This document shows, one piece after another, positions 14,692 through 39,270 of a stretch of 48,173 nucleotides of DNA. This DNA is from a virus. Below the pieces are notes generated by a model. It had not been told where the DNA came from and made no database searches. It worked only from the letters and a program-made list of their open reading frames with translations. The number at the start of each line of letters is the position of its first letter. Position 1 is the stretch's first letter. The translations under genes and the position numbers were made by a program. The DNA is taken from IMG/VR virus record IMGVR_UViG_3300022307_000001, positions 1 through 48,173 of that record. One strand, written 5' to 3'.

Positions 14692-14890
14692 GTTTAATCT
14701 GTTCCGGCAGGTCGATAACCTCTTTTAACTGATCGGCCCCGGCGTTCCAATTTGCTGCTTCCTCAAGTTTTCCTGCTGATAATGCACCGTGTACTTTTTC
14801 GTCACTGTGTCTCAGTAAAGCCCGTACCCGTTCAAAATAGTCCTGTGTGACTTCATCCTCAAGCCATCTTGTCACATCCCCTTTTTTCAT
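14660..14890 (-). CDS. hypothetical protein
   Basis: 76-aa acidic ORF overlapping the portal stop by 4 nt. Confidence 0.5.
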   Translation of the reverse strand: MKKGDVTRWLEDEVTQDYFERVRALLRHSDEKVHGALSAGKLEEAANWNAGADQLKEVIDLPEQIKLEIEDEDGNT

Positions 14891-16941
14891 AAATTACCCC
14901 CTGGTAGTTGAATTTGCGCTGTGGCAGGTTGCCCAGATGATGGCGGTTTTTCGGCTTGAGGAGGAGCCGGTTGCGGCATACCAGGAGAGGGAGTACCCAT
15001 TAACTGGGCCTGCTCTGCTTCAACTGCCGCCATCATCTGAGTTTCCTGAATGTGTTTTGTAAATGCGAGTTTATATTCTTTTGGTAGTCCCTTATACAAA
15101 TCTGTTTGAGAGAAGTTTAAATGCACCAGCATATGATCTTTATGATTTTCGCCTGGTTTTGGTTTTATATCCAAATCGCCTTGCGCAACTTTAGCATTTT
15201 CTACCATTGGGCTTGTTGGCATTTCAGGCATATCGGGCAGGATCAAGGAACGGTTTCTTTTCTCGTATGTGTCTAGTAAATCAGATGTAAGTGCGTGAAG
15301 TGCTACTGGATTTTGCCCAACCAATGGATTTGTTATCAGAACTTGGTATAACTCCATAGCCTCTTGTCGTTGCATATGCCTTGAAGCAAATGTTGGGTCT
15401 CCTTGTGGGATTACATCGTGAACACCTGAAAAGTCCTCTTTTTTGGTCTCTTTAAACGCTATTTTATCTGGCGACTCCATTACCCGATATTGTTTTGCAT
15501 CGGTTAAATAAAGCTGGTTTAAGGTCATTATAAGCCTTAGTTCTTTACGCACAGACCGTAGAATCCTCTTTGTAAGCACGGCAAATGTAATCAAACCCTG
15601 TTCAATTACTGCCATTGTGCCGGATGCGGTGGGTGTTTTAACCCCTTTTTGCTGTCTACCGGATAAAAGCTCTGTGGCCGATGTGAATTGCTCTGAATAT
15701 TGCTGGATAAGGCCAAGCGCCATGAAAAGAATCTGGTCTACACGCTGCACGTTGGGGAAGTTAATAGCGCTTGCGTCTTCAACTTCGTACATTCCGCCTG
15801 GTTTTATCTTTATTTTCCTGCTTTTGAATCCGGCACGTCTTGAATAGAAGCCAAAAGGCTGATTTGACAGCCTGCCAGAATCAAAAATCTGGTTAAAAGC
15901 TGTATTAGCCATTTCATTTAACGGTTCTAGGAAATGCCCGAAACCAAAAGAGTACCAACCCTCTGGATTTGGTATAAAATGGTAGTCGATGAAGTAATTC
16001 AAGGTAACTTTTTTGTTTCCAACCTCGTATTCACGCACAACCGCACGTAAAAGATAGCCGGTGTCTTTATGCACCCAAAAGATAACAGGTTTTTTGACTC
16101 CATCGACTTTCCAAACACGGTGTTGCTCCAGTACAAGCCCTGGTTCGTCTGTTGACCGTTCTGGTGATTCGCCTGCCACTATATCGGCTGTTTGTTTTAG
16201 TGCCGGATCATCTGTGTCACTCTTAGAAGGTGTATCAGGCGGGTCTTCTTTTAAAGGGAAATCCCTATAAAACTCAGAGTCTATTCTGTCTTCTACCTCG
16301 TCTGGATGAAACCAGAGGCGATGTGTCATTCTTCTGGCTGTTTTTAGGCTCTTTGTCTTATACGGTACTACAAAGTCAAGGGCGCTTATGAAGTGGCTTT
16401 CTGGTCTGTCATTGTCTTTGTCCCATGTCAATTTTCTGACGGCAATACCATTTATGGGCAATAGTTGGAGGGTTCTGTCGAATGTATCTTCATACTCTTC
16501 CATATCAAACAGAAGCTGCCAGTTTAGAAAAGCCTCCACGTTTTTACTTCGTTTAATATCGTTCTCACCTACCGGGATTGTTTTAACAACACCAGGAGCA
16601 GCAAAAATAGACTGATAAGACCTTGCATGCATCTGGTTTGAAGCGCCGGCAAGCATTGGGATGCAAACATTACTAGCCCCAGGCCACGGATCTGTTTTAG
16701 GCTCTCTGTAGCACGTCCATAGTTTATAGTATCTGTTTCTTTTTTCTTCCCATTCTGACCTTGACCGGATATCAGCATCGTAGTCTTCAATGACAGTTTG
16801 AGCGATTAGTTTCTGTTCTTCTTCGCTAAAATTACCGGCTATGTTAACCGTTGCTTTCTCGCCTGCTGTTTTCATTTCAATATCCTGTCCATTGGTTTGC
16901 TGTTGACTTATGGTTGTCTTCTTCGTCGTCTTCGTCTTCAT
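14887..16941 (-). CDS. portal protein
   Basis: 662-684 aa, directly downstream of TerL. The maximal ORF overlaps TerL by 65 nt. The ATG at 16875 (MKTAGEK..), just after the TerL stop at 16877-16879, is the more likely start. Confidence 0.7.
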   Translation of the reverse strand: MKTKTTKKTTISQQQTNGQDIEMKTAGEKATVNIAGNFSEEEQKLIAQTVIEDYDADIRSRSEWEEKRNRYYKLWTCYREPKTDPWPGASNVCIPMLAGASNQMHARSYQSIFAAPGVVKTIPVGENDIKRSKNVEAFLNWQLLFDMEEYEDTFDRTLQLLPINGIAVRKLTWDKDNDRPESHFISALDFVVPYKTKSLKTARRMTHRLWFHPDEVEDRIDSEFYRDFPLKEDPPDTPSKSDTDDPALKQTADIVAGESPERSTDEPGLVLEQHRVWKVDGVKKPVIFWVHKDTGYLLRAVVREYEVGNKKVTLNYFIDYHFIPNPEGWYSFGFGHFLEPLNEMANTAFNQIFDSGRLSNQPFGFYSRRAGFKSRKIKIKPGGMYEVEDASAINFPNVQRVDQILFMALGLIQQYSEQFTSATELLSGRQQKGVKTPTASGTMAVIEQGLITFAVLTKRILRSVRKELRLIMTLNQLYLTDAKQYRVMESPDKIAFKETKKEDFSGVHDVIPQGDPTFASRHMQRQEAMELYQVLITNPLVGQNPVALHALTSDLLDTYEKRNRSLILPDMPEMPTSPMVENAKVAQGDLDIKPKPGENHKDHMLVHLNFSQTDLYKGLPKEYKLAFTKHIQETQMMAAVEAEQAQLMGTPSPGMPQPAPPQAEKPPSSGQPATAQIQLPGGNL

Positions 16942-23747: not shown

Positions 23748-23969
23748 TGCTTCACCTGGTAATTTTGTTCTGTGGTATAAATTAGACATCCCTTCGGCCT
23801 GGCGTTTCGCTATTTCTTCGTTGCTCATCGCCCTCATTCCTGGTAAAGATTTACGTTGCATTTCTGCAATTTCTTCATCCGACATTGCTCTCATTGATTC
23901 ATTTTGAATTCTTATTATTTCCATTCTTCTTTCTTCATCCATAATTAGCCTCCAAAGCATAACAATCAA
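23745..23969 (-). CDS. hypothetical protein with an internal duplication
   Basis: 74 aa. MRAMSDEEIAEMQRK / MRAMSNEEIAKRQAE repeat. Confidence 0.5.
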   Translation of the reverse strand: MIVMLWRLIMDEERRMEIIRIQNESMRAMSDEEIAEMQRKSLPGMRAMSNEEIAKRQAEGMSNLYHRTKLPGEA

Positions 23970-24053
23970 ATTCAGTGGATGCCGAGAACGGTGGCGGCGC
24001 TACGCGGGTAATTCGGTAGCGGCACCACTGATTATCGGCGTTAGGTGGTGCTA
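23970..24053 (-). repeat. stop-to-start intergenic palindromic element, copy e
   Basis: TAGCACCACCTAACGCCGATAATCAGTGG...CCACTGAATTTGATTGTTATG. Closing stem is CAGTGG/CCACTG. Confidence 0.65.
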
Positions 24054-24209
24054 ATCTTCTTCAACGATTCTGGTATAATATTCTTCATGGTTAAGATTCA
24101 TGTTAGCCCCATCGTCGACTCTCCCGGCTTGCCTTTCCGGCATTGGCCCCATTCTTTTAACCACTTCCTCAGGTTCACCATATTTGACTATTTCGACGTA
24201 ATATTTCAT
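24051..24209 (-). CDS. hypothetical 52-aa protein (below the ORF-track cutoff)
   Basis: Hand translation gives MKYYVEIVKYGEPEEVVKRMGPMPERQAGRVDDGANMNLNHEEYYTRIVEED*. It fills the gap between two repeat elements. The antisense 60-aa track ORF looks spurious. Confidence 0.45.
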   Translation of the reverse strand: MKYYVEIVKYGEPEEVVKRMGPMPERQAGRVDDGANMNLNHEEYYTRIVEED

Positions 24210-24290
24210 AACAATCACTCAAACTGACCGCAAGATCGTCTCCGGCCCTACGGGGTCAGGTTCATAGGGCGGCAACTTAGTTTAGCGTTA
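24210..24290 (-). repeat. stop-to-start intergenic palindromic element, copy f
   Basis: GCATAACGCTAAACTAAGTTGCCGCCC...GCGGTCAGTTTGAGTGATTGTTATG. Confidence 0.6.
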
Positions 24291-24560
24291 TGCGTACGCC
24301 TCAATTTCCTCGGCGGTCACATAGGCCGCTTGTTTAGTCTTCGGCACCATCACAGACAATCTACCCTTGAAAGGCCCCGATTTTGCCTTGCGGAATTGCG
24401 CTCCGGTAACTCTCATTACCTGCCTACTGTCTCCTAGCCATCCGGCCTCGTATAGCCTAAAGTTTTCGGGTATTCCTCCCGGCAATTTAGCTATCTTGTT
24501 AAGGGCGATCTTTCCATATGTATATGTCGCGAAAATATCAGTAGTCATATCTGCTGCCAT
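24288..24560 (-). CDS. hypothetical protein
   Basis: 90-aa ORF. Confidence 0.55.
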   Translation of the reverse strand: MAADMTTDIFATYTYGKIALNKIAKLPGGIPENFRLYEAGWLGDSRQVMRVTGAQFRKAKSGPFKGRLSVMVPKTKQAAYVTAEEIEAYA

Positions 24561-29323: not shown

Positions 29324-29341
29324 TTACCTTCCTCCAAAACG

Positions 29342-29432
29342 CAAAAAGCAACTCGAAAGGTTCGCTTGACTGTGGACTAAGAACCACAACCGGACTAAAT
29401 TAACCGGCTTCAAACCCTTCGAGCTGCTTTTT
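29342..29432 (-). ncRNA. Y-shaped structured RNA / atypical terminator in the 5' region of the nuclease gene
   Basis: On the minus strand a 20-bp closing helix, AAAAAGCAGCTCGAAGGGTT / AACCTTTCGAGTTGCTTTTT, has two G-U pairs that would be A-C mismatches on the other strand. It encloses two hairpins (AGCCGG..CCGGTT and TGTGG..CCACA) and is followed by GCGTTTTGG. Confidence 0.5.
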
Positions 29433-29528
29433 ATTTTCTGAATCATATTTTGCCTTAGTTTTTTTAGAATTACATCGGGTGTGTCAAGTCCGATAAACTA
29501 CATTATCATATCAATTTTGTTTGTGCAA

Positions 29529-31932: not shown

Positions 31933-32035
31933 TATCTACCTCCCGTAAGGTAATATAACCAGGCGTTTCAGCCGAGTCGGCAGGCTTGTTCTGTTTTTCT
32001 TCATGTTAGTAGGCTCCCTGCTGAACTTGTTGTTA
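31933..32035 (-). repeat. stop-to-start intergenic palindromic element, copy l
   Basis: GATAACAACAAGTTCAGC...GCTGAAACGCCTGGTTATATT. Closing stem is TTCAGC/GCTGAA. Confidence 0.55.
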
Positions 32036-32251
32036 TCTGTACAAATCAACATAGTCGCCAAATTCGGCATCGAAAACAGCTATCAGGTTTTCATAGCCTC
32101 CGCTGGTCATTCGCTTGTTTATATCTTCCGTATCTTTGCCAAGTTGACGGCTAAGTTTTGCGGCAATACCAAGCAAGCAAAAAGCATTACCTTGGGGTCC
32201 GTTCAGATCTACTTCCATCTTGCCAGTTCTTTTCTTTGTCTTAATAGCCAT
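32033..32251 (-). CDS. hypothetical protein
   Basis: Start at 32251 (MAIKTKKRTG) after GGAGGAGAGAG. Confidence 0.55.
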   Translation of the reverse strand: MAIKTKKRTGKMEVDLNGPQGNAFCLLGIAAKLSRQLGKDTEDINKRMTSGGYENLIAVFDAEFGDYVDLYR

Positions 32252-32322
32252 TGCTCTCTCCTCCAAATAATAAATCAGATAACCAAAAAATTCACCAGAC
32301 AGCGTGAACATTGGCGGTGTTA
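32252..32322 (-). repeat. stop-to-start intergenic element, copy i (minimal, terminator-like)
   Basis: TAACACCGCCAATGTTCACGCTGTCTGGTGAATTTTTTGGTTATC. TTCAC/GTGAA hairpin plus a T-run. Confidence 0.6.
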
Positions 32323-32445
32323 CTTCCCCACCTGTTCAATAATTAACAAATTAACCAGTCCATTCATGGTTAGGCCCATCTTCTTAGCTTCGTTCCTTAG
32401 CTTATCTTTTCGTTCTTTTGGCATCTTAATTAGTAATTCTTCCAA
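32320..32445 (-). CDS. 41-aa ribbon-helix-helix regulator candidate (first gene of the leftward early operon)
   Basis: Hand translation gives (TTG)LEELLIKMPKERKDKLRNEAKKMGLTMNGLVNLLIIEQVGK*. GGAGG lies 6 nt before the TTG. The RHH-like pattern is R..L..eA...G.s.n.Lv..li. Confidence 0.45.
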   Translation of the reverse strand: MEELLIKMPKERKDKLRNEAKKMGLTMNGLVNLLIIEQVGK

Positions 32446-32471
32446 GCTACACCTCCTCTGTATTTTGGGTT

Positions 32472-32499
32472 ATTTTACCACCTGTGTTTATAAAGTCAA
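32472..32499 (-). promoter_or_regulatory. sigma70-like promoter, leftward early operon
   Basis: Minus strand has TTGACT (32499-32494), 16-nt spacer, TAAAAT (32477-32472). Confidence 0.6.
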
Positions 32500-32547
32500 C
32501 ATATTTATTGGGGTAAAAATAAATTTACTTTTTGCGGTATTTTATTC

Positions 32548-32575
32548 TTGACACGTTATTTCCCTGTGGTAAGAT
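32548..32575 (+). promoter_or_regulatory. sigma70-like promoter, rightward recombination operon
   Basis: TTGACA (32548-32553), 16-nt spacer, TAAGAT (32570-32575). Confidence 0.6.
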
Positions 32576-33803: not shown

Positions 33804-34937
33804 ATGAGCAAAGAATTGGTAACAATAGAAAGAATCAATGAACTTGATGTGGCGGTAGTTTATAAGCCGGAAAACATATCGGCTTTAATTGAAGAGATCC
33901 GCCAACAAGCAATGGCCCATGTCCCAGATATAAGCACCGCCACCGGGAGAAAGGCAATAGCCTCTAACGCCCACAATGTTGCAAGATCTAAAACCTTAAT
34001 TGACGGCATGGGAAAGGACTTGGGCGCTGATTATAAAGCCAAACTTGACAGCATCAACAAGGAAAGAAAAAGAGTCCGTGACGAGTGCGACCTGATAAAA
34101 GATGAAGTAAGAAAGCCTTTGACAGAGTGGGAAGAGGCCGAAAAGAGAAAGGGTGAGGTCGCCGGAGTAATTATAAACACAATCATGGTAATGAGAGAAT
34201 CAGCTGGTGAATTGCCTTCACAGGATATTTCTAACCTTGTTGCCCAACTTGATACCCTTGTTGGCGCTAACGATCTTGGCGAACATCTTGAAAGAGTTAC
34301 GTTAGAAATAGACAAGGCCAGGGAAGTTCTGACGACAAAAGCAGAAGCAGCCTTGCAATATGAGAAAGACCAGGCCGAGCTTGCCAAGTTGAAAAAGGAG
34401 GCAGAGGAACGAGCCGCCAAAGAAGCCGCAGAGAAAGCAGACCGTGAACGCAAGGAAGCGGAAGAGCAAGCCAAGAAAGAACAGGCTGACCGTGAAGAGC
34501 GGATCAGGAAAGAAGCAGAAGAAAAGGCGCAGCGTGAAGCGGCAGAAAAGGCCGAGGCAGAGAAATTAAAAGCAGAACAAGAAAAGCAAGAGGCTATTAG
34601 GAAACAGAAAGAAGCCGAGGAAGCAGTAAAACGAGCCGAAGAAGAAAGAAAAGTTGCCGCCATAAAAGCTGAGCAAGAAAAAGCCGCCGCCGTTGCTTTA
34701 GCAGAGAAACAAGAACGTGAACGACAAGAGAAAACAAGGCGTGAAGAAGACGAGGCAAAACGTATTGCCGCTGAGAAAGAAGCGAAAGAGAAGGCCAAGA
34801 AAAGCCATATCGACAAGATAAAAAAAGAGGCATATGTTTCTTTGGTAAAGGCTACCGGGATATCAGAGGCTGACGCTAAAACGGTTCTCACAGCGATAAA
34901 CAATGGTGAAGTTAAGCACGTTACTATTAACTATTGA
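33804..34937 (+). CDS. DUF1351-like protein with a long E/K/A-rich low-complexity region
   Basis: 377 aa. The N-terminal third resembles DUF1351 proteins found beside Erf/RecT recombinases. Residues of roughly 190-340 are KEAEE-type repeats. Confidence 0.5.
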   Translation: MSKELVTIERINELDVAVVYKPENISALIEEIRQQAMAHVPDISTATGRKAIASNAHNVARSKTLIDGMGKDLGADYKAKLDSINKERKRVRDECDLIKDEVRKPLTEWEEAEKRKGEVAGVIINTIMVMRESAGELPSQDISNLVAQLDTLVGANDLGEHLERVTLEIDKAREVLTTKAEAALQYEKDQAELAKLKKEAEERAAKEAAEKADRERKEAEEQAKKEQADREERIRKEAEEKAQREAAEKAEAEKLKAEQEKQEAIRKQKEAEEAVKRAEEERKVAAIKAEQEKAAAVALAEKQERERQEKTRREEDEAKRIAAEKEAKEKAKKSHIDKIKKEAYVSLVKATGISEADAKTVLTAINNGEVKHVTINY

Positions 34938-34961
34938 CATTTTAACCAAATTATGTATATT
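34934..34961 (+). promoter_or_regulatory. strong sigma70-like internal promoter
   Basis: TTGACA (34934-34939), 16-nt spacer, TATATT (34956-34961). It overlaps the stop of the previous gene. Confidence 0.6.
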
Positions 34962-34972
34962 GGAGGGGTAGC

Positions 34973-35614
34973 ATGAAAAAAGCAACTGATGGCCGGGAAG
35001 CCAGAAGCAAGTCAAACACACACAAAAAATCACAATTTCCAAAGCACTTGAGTTTTTTCTCTCTTCCCGGTCGAAAATACGCTTTCTCTCGTGCTTTGGG
35101 ATTCTTTACTCAGAGTTTCATCCCAATTGTTCCTTTTGTCCTGGCACCAAGGAGTTGTGAGAGGGTACTTCTCCGCTGTAGTCCCGAATGGATTGCTTTC
35201 TACGGCACTAGTCCTTGCAAGGCTATCTTCTCTCAGCACGGCCAATCTTTGGTGTTAGGGACAAAGGGAACAATAAACGAGACAACCTGCACAGATTTAC
35301 CAAGTTTCAGAAGCAAAGAAGATCAGAGAAAGGCGTTTGACCCGAACGGCCCGATTGAGAATCAAGCCATTTTAAATGGTGGGCATATACAGGATTTTCT
35401 ATCTCGCAAGAATAGATTTTGCACATTATCACATGCGACCACGGCAACCAATCGGTGGGGCAACGAGAAGGTAACTCGTAAAAATTGTCATCCTGGTAAA
35501 TCTTTCTCTGGCACCATTTATGGTTTAGCCTACCCCGTTTGGCTAATTGTACCTCAGCTAACTACAGGTGCAAAAACACGGGTTAGTCGAACTATGCCTA
35601 TCACTCAACCGTAA
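34973..35614 (+). other. 213-codon open frame of atypical composition: either a very basic orphan protein or a large structured ncRNA
   Basis: The frame is open and GGAGGGG precedes the ATG. By hand count only about 48 of 213 codons start with G, D/E/L/A are depleted, and S/T/K/R/F/P/C/H/W are enriched. No motif recognised. Confidence 0.4.
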
Positions 35615-35628
35615 CCAACGAGGATAAT

Positions 35629-36042
35629 ATGAATAAGACAGATTACATGAACAGCTTACTGGCCCTCTGCACAGATAGGCAAAAAGATATATTTAACCGA
35701 ATGTACCCAGCCGGGCCAAGCATTAAGCAGATAAACTGGGCAATAAAACAACTCGAAAATACCTTGAGTAACCTGAACTCAAAAGAGGAAGAGTTCAAAG
35801 AACTACAAAGGGTTTTAACCGACCATACCACAAAGTCTGCTGAGATAATAAAGGAGTTGACTAGTAAGTTGGCGATTTCAGAACATGAAAACAAGGTTTA
35901 TGAGAAAAGAATAGAGCGCCTAACAAGCCAAATAAATATTGACAACGCTAATGTCCAAGAGAGATTGGCACTGCTAGACGCTTTAGAAGCTGGCGGGGTA
36001 GATAATTGGGATGGATATGACTTGGCTATAGACGCAATATAA
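35629..36042 (+). CDS. hypothetical coiled-coil protein
   Basis: 137-aa ORF after CGAGGATAAT. Confidence 0.6.
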   Translation: MNKTDYMNSLLALCTDRQKDIFNRMYPAGPSIKQINWAIKQLENTLSNLNSKEEEFKELQRVLTDHTTKSAEIIKELTSKLAISEHENKVYEKRIERLTSQINIDNANVQERLALLDALEAGGVDNWDGYDLAIDAI

Positions 36043-36056
36043 AGGGTGAACTAACA

Positions 36057-36212
36057 ATGAAAATACACAACCCAGACGATTGCCAACTCACAGTACCATA
36101 TGGCAAGTCAGAAATAAGAATACCACCACACACAACCGCCACAGTTATTGAAGTACCATTGGGCAAGCTGATGGGGATTTGTGTTAAATTCGAACAGGAG
36201 ATAAAGAAATGA
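36057..36212 (+). CDS. hypothetical 51-aa protein (below the track cutoff)
   Basis: MKIHNPDDCQLTVPYGKSEIRIPPHTTATVIEVPLGKLMGICVKFEQEIKK*. ATGA overlap with erf. Confidence 0.4.
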   Translation: MKIHNPDDCQLTVPYGKSEIRIPPHTTATVIEVPLGKLMGICVKFEQEIKK

Positions 36213-36865
36213 GCGAATCAGGATTAGGTGTATACAAAGCAATCTCAACCGTCCAAGGAGAACTTGCCAAACGAGGCATAAGCAAGGACCAGCAGAACAA
36301 AATGCAGGGCTTCAAATACAGAGGCATTGACGATGTTTATGCAGCTCTGTGCCCGTTGCTGGCGTCTAATGGCCTTTGCATACTGCCAAAAATGGTATCT
36401 AAAACAGTTGTTGAGAGAACAAACGCCAAAGGAACAGCGTTGTTTTATACAACGGTTGAAGTAGATTTTGACATAGTTAGCTCAGAAGATGGTAGCCGTC
36501 ACACCGTGAGCAGTTATGGGGAGGCAATGGACAGCGGAGATAAGAGTGCTGGTAAGGCGATGAGCTATGCTTATAAAGCAATGGCCTTTATGGTTTTTGC
36601 AATCCCCACCGAGGGAGACAACGACCCAGATGCCAATGTTCATACCGTTATGTCAAATAAAGAACCTTCCAAACCGGCACCATTATCCCCAGCCGTAAGG
36701 GAAAGCGTCGATAAATACGTTGCCCAGATTGCCAAACTTGAGACCCTGGCGGAAGTTGAGGCATGGTTAAAGAAAAACGAGCCAAACTTTTCTGCCGCCC
36801 CGGTCGCTGCAATCAATGAGATTATGACAGAATACGAGAACGCAAAGAAAGCTTACTCAAAATAA
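36209..36865 (+). CDS. erf: ERF-family single-strand annealing protein
   Basis: VYKAISTVQGELAKRGISKDQQNKMQGFKYRGIDDVYAALCPLLASNGL...DSGDKSAGKAMSYAYKAMAFMVFAIPTEGDNDPD matches the P22 Erf family pattern. Confidence 0.8.
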   Translation: MSESGLGVYKAISTVQGELAKRGISKDQQNKMQGFKYRGIDDVYAALCPLLASNGLCILPKMVSKTVVERTNAKGTALFYTTVEVDFDIVSSEDGSRHTVSSYGEAMDSGDKSAGKAMSYAYKAMAFMVFAIPTEGDNDPDANVHTVMSNKEPSKPAPLSPAVRESVDKYVAQIAKLETLAEVEAWLKKNEPNFSAAPVAAINEIMTEYENAKKAYSK

Positions 36866-38971: not shown

Positions 38972-39036
38972 GTTTATAACGCTTTTAATAAGCGGCCACA
39001 ACGGCCAAATAACACTAACCAAAGGAGTAAATTAGA

Positions 39037-39270
39037 ATGAAGAACGTGACTAAACTCGGATACTTGGCAATGGTCGGCTTGATTTTATTGTTATCTGCCT
39101 GCTCTCAGGATATTGGCGAAAAAGATCCTTGCTCGTATTGCGGTGGTGGGATATTTGCCCACAGAACTAACCACGGAGGGATGCTGGCACACTACACAAC
39201 AGACTTCCAAACTAGAGATGGTAAAAAATATCATCCTTGGTGTGTAAAATTATTTGACTCTGAGAATTAA
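39037..39270 (+). CDS. lipoprotein (possible superinfection-exclusion or moron function)
   Basis: Signal peptide plus lipobox LLLSAC at residues 18-22. Cys/His-rich mature part is CSYCGGG..H..H..WC. Confidence 0.65.
   Translation: MKNVTKLGYLAMVGLILLLSACSQDIGEKDPCSYCGGGIFAHRTNHGGMLAHYTTDFQTRDGKKYHPWCVKLFDSEN

Follow-up and report, generated by a model that had tools for sequence, protein, structure and literature searches.

The window analysed here is a complete metagenomic phage genome from IMG/VR (record IMGVR_UViG_3300022307_000001) of 48,173 bp with direct terminal repeats. Its rightward early operon contains an open reading frame (ORF) of 213 codons, ORF213, whose region an earlier sequence-only reading had proposed as a possible large non-coding RNA of about 640 nt. 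Our analysis points, with somewhat better than even probability, to ORF213 being an orphan accessory gene that occupies a variable slot beside an anti-RecBCD gene and carries a plus-strand RNA structure in its 5' half. The open frame, the strong Shine-Dalgarno (SD) sequence ahead of it and the tight fit between its neighbours argue for translation of ORF213, and a strand-specific fold spans the first half of the region. The features concerned are as follows.

34973..35614, plus strand: ORF213, an orphan frame of 213 codons with a basic product (pI 10.2) that starts MKK.
34965..35125, plus strand: 5' structured domain, in which the start codon pairs with 35088-35094 and a CCGGGAAG/CTTCCCGG stem surrounds a CA-rich loop, followed by a small hairpin.
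35126..35274, plus strand: long imperfect hairpin of about 55 bp, with a 28-bp basal stem that has one bulged base (35258).
34934..34961, plus strand: sigma70-type promoter-like site TTGACA-16-TATATT (11/12 match), which overlaps the stop codon of the 377-aa upstream gene.
34962..34968, plus strand: SD sequence GGAGG(GG), 6 nt ahead of the ATG at 34973 and upstream of the promoter's predicted start site.

ORF213 combines a long open frame with an SD sequence and a start codon, as a coding gene should. The RNA proposal had itself been raised with the caveat that so many stop-free codons are hard to obtain by chance. An open run of at least 213 codons appeared in one of 5000 dinucleotide shuffles of the region; the first 107 codons alone stay stop-free in only 2.4% of shuffles. 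The remaining five frames of the region contain 10-12 stops each, and frame 0 is the best of the six. The SD sequence is among the strongest of the roughly 50 listed genes, with the same spacing as the others. ORF213 also fills 642 nt (93%) of the 691-nt gap between its neighbours, and its stop codon (35612-35614) lies 14 nt from the ATG of the gp5.9-like gene, just ahead of that gene's own SD sequence (GAGGA). The neighbouring genes are listed below.

33804-34937, plus strand: phrog_1376 gene (377 aa), directly upstream of the ORF213 region, with its TGA stop at 34935-34937.
35629..36042, plus strand: gp5.9-like gene (137 aa), with a T7 gp5.9-like RecBCD-inhibitor motif at the C-terminus (PF25708, E = 5.9e-11; phrog_4790).
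36209-36865: erf, the Erf annealase gene, downstream of the gp5.9-like gene.

The variable nature of this slot is seen by comparison with a related viral contig (L034, 5028-6615), in which erf comes 11 nt after a phrog_1376 homologue of 320 aa that shares the C-terminal ...INY with the window's upstream gene. Since phrog_1376 and erf are adjacent there, the promoter-like site, ORF213, the gp5.9-like gene and a 51-codon ORF together make up a 1.27-kb indel, which marks the phrog_1376/erf junction as a variable insertion slot. ORF213 is thus part of a module between the conserved phrog_1376 gene and erf, probably inserted together with the gp5.9-like gene. We further note that relatives of Erf are seen in metagenome-assembled genomes of Deltaproteobacteria, Legionella and others.

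The fold of the 661-nt region is more stable than that of shuffled sequences on the plus strand (z = -4.8) and hardly so on the minus strand (z = -0.8; 20 shuffles), and this signal comes from the 5' half. Within it, the 5' domain has plus- and minus-strand z-scores of -3.3 and -1.3 against shuffles of 34965-35120 (RNALfold gives -4.3 on the plus strand for 34965-35125). The hairpin at 35126-35274, folded as RNA, reaches -64.9 kcal/mol, and 200 shuffles give it z-scores of -5.5 (plus) and -2.0 (minus). When RNALfold was run on both strands of the whole genome, 35087-35283(+) was the second most significant structure (z = -6.1), and 34965-35125(+) was also listed. The 3' half (35290-35628) yields no significant structure in either the 300-nt z-score scan or the RNALfold list, and 34965-35283 is the only part of the region that is both more stable than shuffles and strand-specific. 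The coarse 300-nt scan does not make the region conspicuous because its windows dilute the hairpin. Both helices of an interleaved pair drawn in the sequence-only reading are present and do interleave (I1, 34993-35015 with 35048-35070; I5, 35039-35052 with 35086-99). A further helix proposed there, GCUGUAG/CUACGGC, also exists but is merely the tip of the far larger hairpin at 35126-35274, which that reading had missed.

The fold at 35087-35283 comprises 69 pairs, 12 of them G-U, and its internal mismatches are U-U and C-C, with no A-C. With DNA energy parameters the strand asymmetry is reduced to -3.5 versus -2.5. Because the 12 G-U pairs are accompanied by no A-C mismatch, and because the asymmetry shrinks under DNA parameters, the simplest reading is selection on the plus-strand RNA. 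The G-U pairs might have served as a device to avoid in-frame stops; this explanation was rejected, as synonymous substitutions could restore most of them. Self-complementarity extends over about 260 of the first 300 nt. Within the main stem, third codon positions pair with each other, and first positions with second ones. Such pairing is incompatible with normal codon periodicity and thus explains much of the non-coding look of the first ~100 codons.

Strong hairpins are in themselves not rare in phage DNA. In a control of 228 kb from other, unrelated phage loci, searched on one strand, 51 structures had z <= -5 and 10 had z <= -6, so that hairpins of such strength arise about once per 20-25 kb per strand. 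Near other gp5.9-like genes, strong structures number 25 upstream and 26 downstream, and an association of structured RNA with the upstream side of these genes was therefore discarded.

Several other structures were seen in this genome. Both strands have strong local structure at 14924-15048, with energies of about -57 to -67 kcal/mol and z-scores of -5.9 (minus) and -5.0 (plus). It falls within the final ~55 codons of a 684-aa gene (14887..16941, taken as portal), just before a GroES-like gene; such folds thus do occur in accepted genes. RNALfold places the most significant local RNA structure of the genome (z = -7.4, -50.6 kcal/mol) at 29332-29442 (-), in a gap of the leftward operon. Within the gp5.9-like gene, a palindromic segment at 35914-35982 has a minus-strand z of about -5.5, and the 300-nt window 35701-36000 has z of about -3.1 (plus) and -3.3 (minus).

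A number of observations weigh against ORF213 being an ordinary coding gene, and the first of these concern its composition. The codon log-odds score, with stops excluded, is -0.017 for ORF213 and 0.29 +/- 0.07 for 29 genes of the phage, which places the frame 4.4 standard deviations under those genes and at the level of the off-frames (-0.05 and -0.12). In periodicity, measured by the position-specific base chi-square for each codon, the frame is no different from random stop-free sequence (0.054 and 0.056, respectively). Codons 1-106 are without any coding signal (chi-square per codon 0.036); the second half shows a weak coding signal, its value of 0.111 lying near the 95th percentile of the null and its codon scores reaching up to 0.27. 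G occupies codon position 1 at a frequency of 0.22, compared with 0.27-0.47 in other genes, so the odd composition noticed by hand count in the sequence-only reading (about 22 percent G-start codons) is real, and both codon and amino-acid statistics are near non-coding. The amino-acid log-odds score is -0.064, between those of genes (0.12 +/- 0.075) and spurious ORFs (-0.18 +/- 0.13). ORF213 thus falls in the low tail of codon periodicity and composition, where a few accepted genes overlap with it: two genes of the phage score lower in amino-acid log-odds and four are as low in periodicity. Composition alone is insufficient to tell a non-coding RNA from a gene with large internal hairpins.

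Further points on the same side come from the surroundings and the product of the frame. The best promoter match of the genome would begin transcription 3' of the SD sequence, and RNase III would cleave a 28-bp duplex within a frame under translation unless it is held open by ribosomes. The predicted protein also folds poorly in silico, with a predicted local distance difference test (pLDDT) score of 0.29 in the ESM Atlas model and of 35 in single-sequence AlphaFold2; for a single orphan sequence, the missing confident fold is weak evidence either way. Finally, no relative of ORF213 was found in which purifying selection on the protein could be seen.

A second ATG-initiated frame with unusual composition, of 182 codons, occurs at 32003-32551 (+); its codon score is -0.16 and its frequency of G at codon position 1 is 0.16. 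This frame overlaps leftward genes and the divergent promoter region, and is probably spurious.

The search for relatives covered proteins, genomes and metagenomes. The ORF213 protein retrieved only itself in a word-indexed search of 5.8 billion clusters, as it did when phmmer was run exhaustively on 1.84 billion representatives of all lengths. It matched no family in Pfam, PHROG, NCBIfam or PADLOC, and neither did the short off-frame ORFs. At the nucleotide and translated level, no relative of the region was found in phages by blastn or tblastn, nor in plasmids and E. coli genomes; IMG/VR and JGI metagenome contigs contained no match to ORF213, and nothing similar was found by blastn, tblastn or nhmmer in 161 loci (152 viral and 9 genome loci) collected through phrog_1376, Erf and gp5.9-like genes. 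Two metagenome contigs, mutually identical over the aligned stretch, did match a 22-mer taken from the hairpin stem; they have only ~24 nt in common with the window and were set aside as chance matches. In the protein itself, an N-terminus of net charge +9 is followed by a single segment of borderline hydrophobicity (aa 41-59, Kyte-Doolittle 1.56).

The promoter-like site lies exactly where the sequence-only reading had placed it, on the stop codon of the upstream gene, with all its elements present (TTGACA at 34934-34939, a 16-nt spacer and TATATT at 34956-34961). This is the single best sigma70-type match genome-wide. Dinucleotide-shuffled genomes contain on average 0.95 matches as good, and the match is notable only by its position, on the gene strand in a 35-nt intergenic gap. 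Standard promoter geometry predicts a transcription start at ~34967-34970, downstream of the SD core, in agreement with the start previously proposed at ~34968-34970, at or after GGAGGGG. Transcripts from this internal promoter would carry no SD sequence. No terminator was found after the ORF213 region; any transcript therefore runs on into the gp5.9-like gene, and no discrete 640-nt RNA is defined.

Known RNA families do not account for the region. The whole window gave no match to Rfam 15 at gathering scores, and 34800-35750 gave just one chance miRNA match at E <= 10 (E = 9.6). ROOL, GOLLD, HEARO, raiA and group I/II introns, the families for which the sequence-only reading had recommended a scan, are accordingly excluded as families, and no covariance model of any other Rfam family (including OLE, 6S, riboswitches, tmRNA and RNase P) matches either. 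The idea of a large RNA of ~640 nt survives in part: the near-non-coding statistics and the plus-strand structure at 34965-35283 agree with it, but the 3' half is unstructured, no terminator follows and the frame is open with an SD sequence ahead of it.

If ORF213 is an accessory gene, as we favour, read-through transcripts of the operon would bring the SD sequence and the frame would be translated from them; the product would be basic, contain Cys and perhaps be anchored in the membrane. The plus-strand fold of the first ~300 nt, consisting of the 5' domain and the ~55-bp hairpin, would be what erases codon periodicity in this gene. RNase III needs a duplex of about 22 bp (PMC3867540), and the predicted 28-bp stem with one bulged base satisfies this length rule. 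Since the basal stem exceeds the required length, processing or stabilisation of the downstream message is a reasonable inferred role, and the hairpin probably governs how the gp5.9-like and erf mRNA is processed or how stable it is. On transcripts from the internal promoter, the ORF213 sequence would form a structured 660-nt leader without an SD sequence.

The phage also has a family of attC-like repeats in its leftward operon, and boxes characteristic of this family are found around ORF213.

34943..34949, plus strand: TAACCAA box between the phrog_1376 gene and ORF213; in the attC-like repeat family this is the left-end box.
35612..35618, plus strand: second TAACCAA box, overlapping the ORF213 stop codon.
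35251-35257: GGTGTTA, the right-end box of the family, in the 3' arm of the long hairpin.

TAACCAA and GGTGTTA are both over-represented in the genome (24 versus 9.6 expected and 18 versus 5.5 expected). The hairpin resembles the attC-like repeats in these boxes and in being imperfect and strand-biased; in contrast to those repeats, the boxes do not stand at the hairpin base, the hairpin spans ~150 nt rather than 80-90 nt, and it is enclosed in a frame instead of an intergenic stretch. A covariance model, R1, built from seven members of the family recovers other members with E from 1e-16 to 0.03; it gave no match in 34900-35700 at E <= 10 with filters off, and membership of the hairpin in this family was rejected on that result. 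Neither was a second copy of the hairpin found in the genome or in the phage, plasmid and E. coli collections. The boxes around ORF213 might be a recombination scar or chance.

Three other explanations of the region have to be weighed against an accessory gene. The first ~310 nt (34965-35283), or the whole 660 nt, may be a non-coding structured RNA or a long 5' leader made from the internal promoter, in which the open frame is incidental; we regard this as fairly unlikely. Such an RNA could act in cis or in trans as a new phage RNA that stabilises, processes or regulates the gp5.9-like/erf message, or binds a host factor. The codon, periodicity and amino-acid statistics, which resemble those of non-coding sequence, are consistent with this explanation, as are the plus-strand-specific folds with their 12 G-U pairs and zero A-C mismatches, the weaker strand asymmetry under DNA parameters (which favours RNA over single-stranded DNA), the siting of the best promoter match of the genome such that its transcript is without an SD sequence, the base-paired predicted 5' end, and the total orphan status of the protein with fold confidence at the floor. 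However, so long an open frame is found in about 2e-4 of shuffles and 107 stop-free codons in 2.4%, and a strong, optimally spaced SD sequence would be purposeless in front of an incidental frame. A non-coding RNA is also at odds with the lack of an Rfam match, with the missing terminator and hence the absence of a discrete RNA, with the unstructured 3' half, with the regular occurrence of similar z-scores in phage DNA (about once per 20-25 kb per strand) and with the lack of any homologue to show covariation. We consider unlikely the more specific version in which the ~310 nt of 34965-35283, transcribed SD-less from the strongest promoter match, are a new phage regulatory or decoy RNA (a paired 5' end, the CA-rich loop domain and the 55-bp hairpin) that controls or acts beside the anti-RecBCD and recombination genes, with the frame serving ribosome transit or being incidental.

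The random-like codon and amino-acid content can be reconciled with a significantly open frame and a strong SD sequence if the frame is translated and its peptide is irrelevant, so that ribosome transit is selected and openness rather than codons is conserved. Ribosomes in transit would keep the RNA open, prevent Rho-dependent termination and be delivered to the gp5.9-like start by translational coupling, and the position of the ORF213 stop codon just before the next SD sequence and ATG fits this proposal. We nevertheless hold it to be quite unlikely: codons in the second half of the frame do give a weak coding signal, we know of no precedent of such length, and the coupling and Rho dependence are hypothetical. 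Very improbable, in our assessment, is a hairpin that acts at the DNA level as an element embedded in a gene, either a palindromic mobile element or a degenerate attC-like site. Its span of ~150 nt, TAACCAA in both short flanking gaps, GGTGTTA in its 3' arm and the genome-wide over-representation of both boxes are compatible with such an element. Against it stand the blank result of model R1 in 34900-35700, the single copy of the hairpin in the genome and its absence from the phage, plasmid and E. coli collections, and the stem 22-mer, which matched only two contigs otherwise unrelated to the window. RNA is indicated instead by the 12:0 ratio of G-U pairs over A-C mismatches and by an asymmetry that is larger when RNA rather than DNA parameters are used.

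Phage morons and accessory ORFans sit in variable slots of early operons, as in lambdoid phages. ORF213 is like them in lying in an indel between conserved genes (present relative to L034), with its own promoter-like site, beside an anti-defence gene (the gp5.9-like gene) and without homologues. Unlike morons, it has no terminator following it and scores far lower in codon statistics than the other small accessory genes of the phage, and most of its first 300 nt (~260) are self-complementary.

The hairpin in turn recalls the RNase III processing hairpins of phage early transcripts, such as the T7 R sites and lambda sib. Like them it belongs to an early polycistronic message, forms on the plus strand with a near-continuous duplex longer than 22 bp, and precedes genes that it could tune in their expression. 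The established sites, about 50-60 nt long, are located between genes or 3' of them, whereas the ORF213 hairpin spans ~150 nt inside an open frame and is a putative substrate of the enzyme. Rickettsia palindromic elements are palindromic repeats inserted in frame into genes, and the ORF213 hairpin, a palindrome of ~150 nt through which an open frame reads, is similar to them in this respect; unlike these repeats, it is single-copy, no other having turned up in any of the sequences searched.

ROOL and GOLLD occur in phages and prophages (PMC12286853). The ORF213 region shares with ROOL, GOLLD and OLE a size class of ~600 nt and the lack of a protein family, and differs from them in that only its 5' half is structured, with a long hairpin and a small domain rather than a multi-junction ornate fold. 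It also differs in having an open frame with an SD sequence, no Rfam match and no family in which conservation could be seen.

As an orphan gene, ORF213 would be another accessory gene beside an anti-RecBCD gene and a weak candidate for an anti-defence or exclusion function, and its sole unusual aspect would be a self-complementarity strong enough to erase the codon signal. Were the RNA explanation true, the region would represent a new structured RNA, of which very few are known in phage early operons, tied to host-takeover genes.

Model R1 also identified, in addition to the seven members it was built from, further candidate attC-like repeats at 23956-24048, 24205-24295, 31952-32040 (+) and 38976-39094 (-), with E from 1.5e-7 to 0.04. 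The candidate near 39 kb is the one that lies outside the leftward operon.

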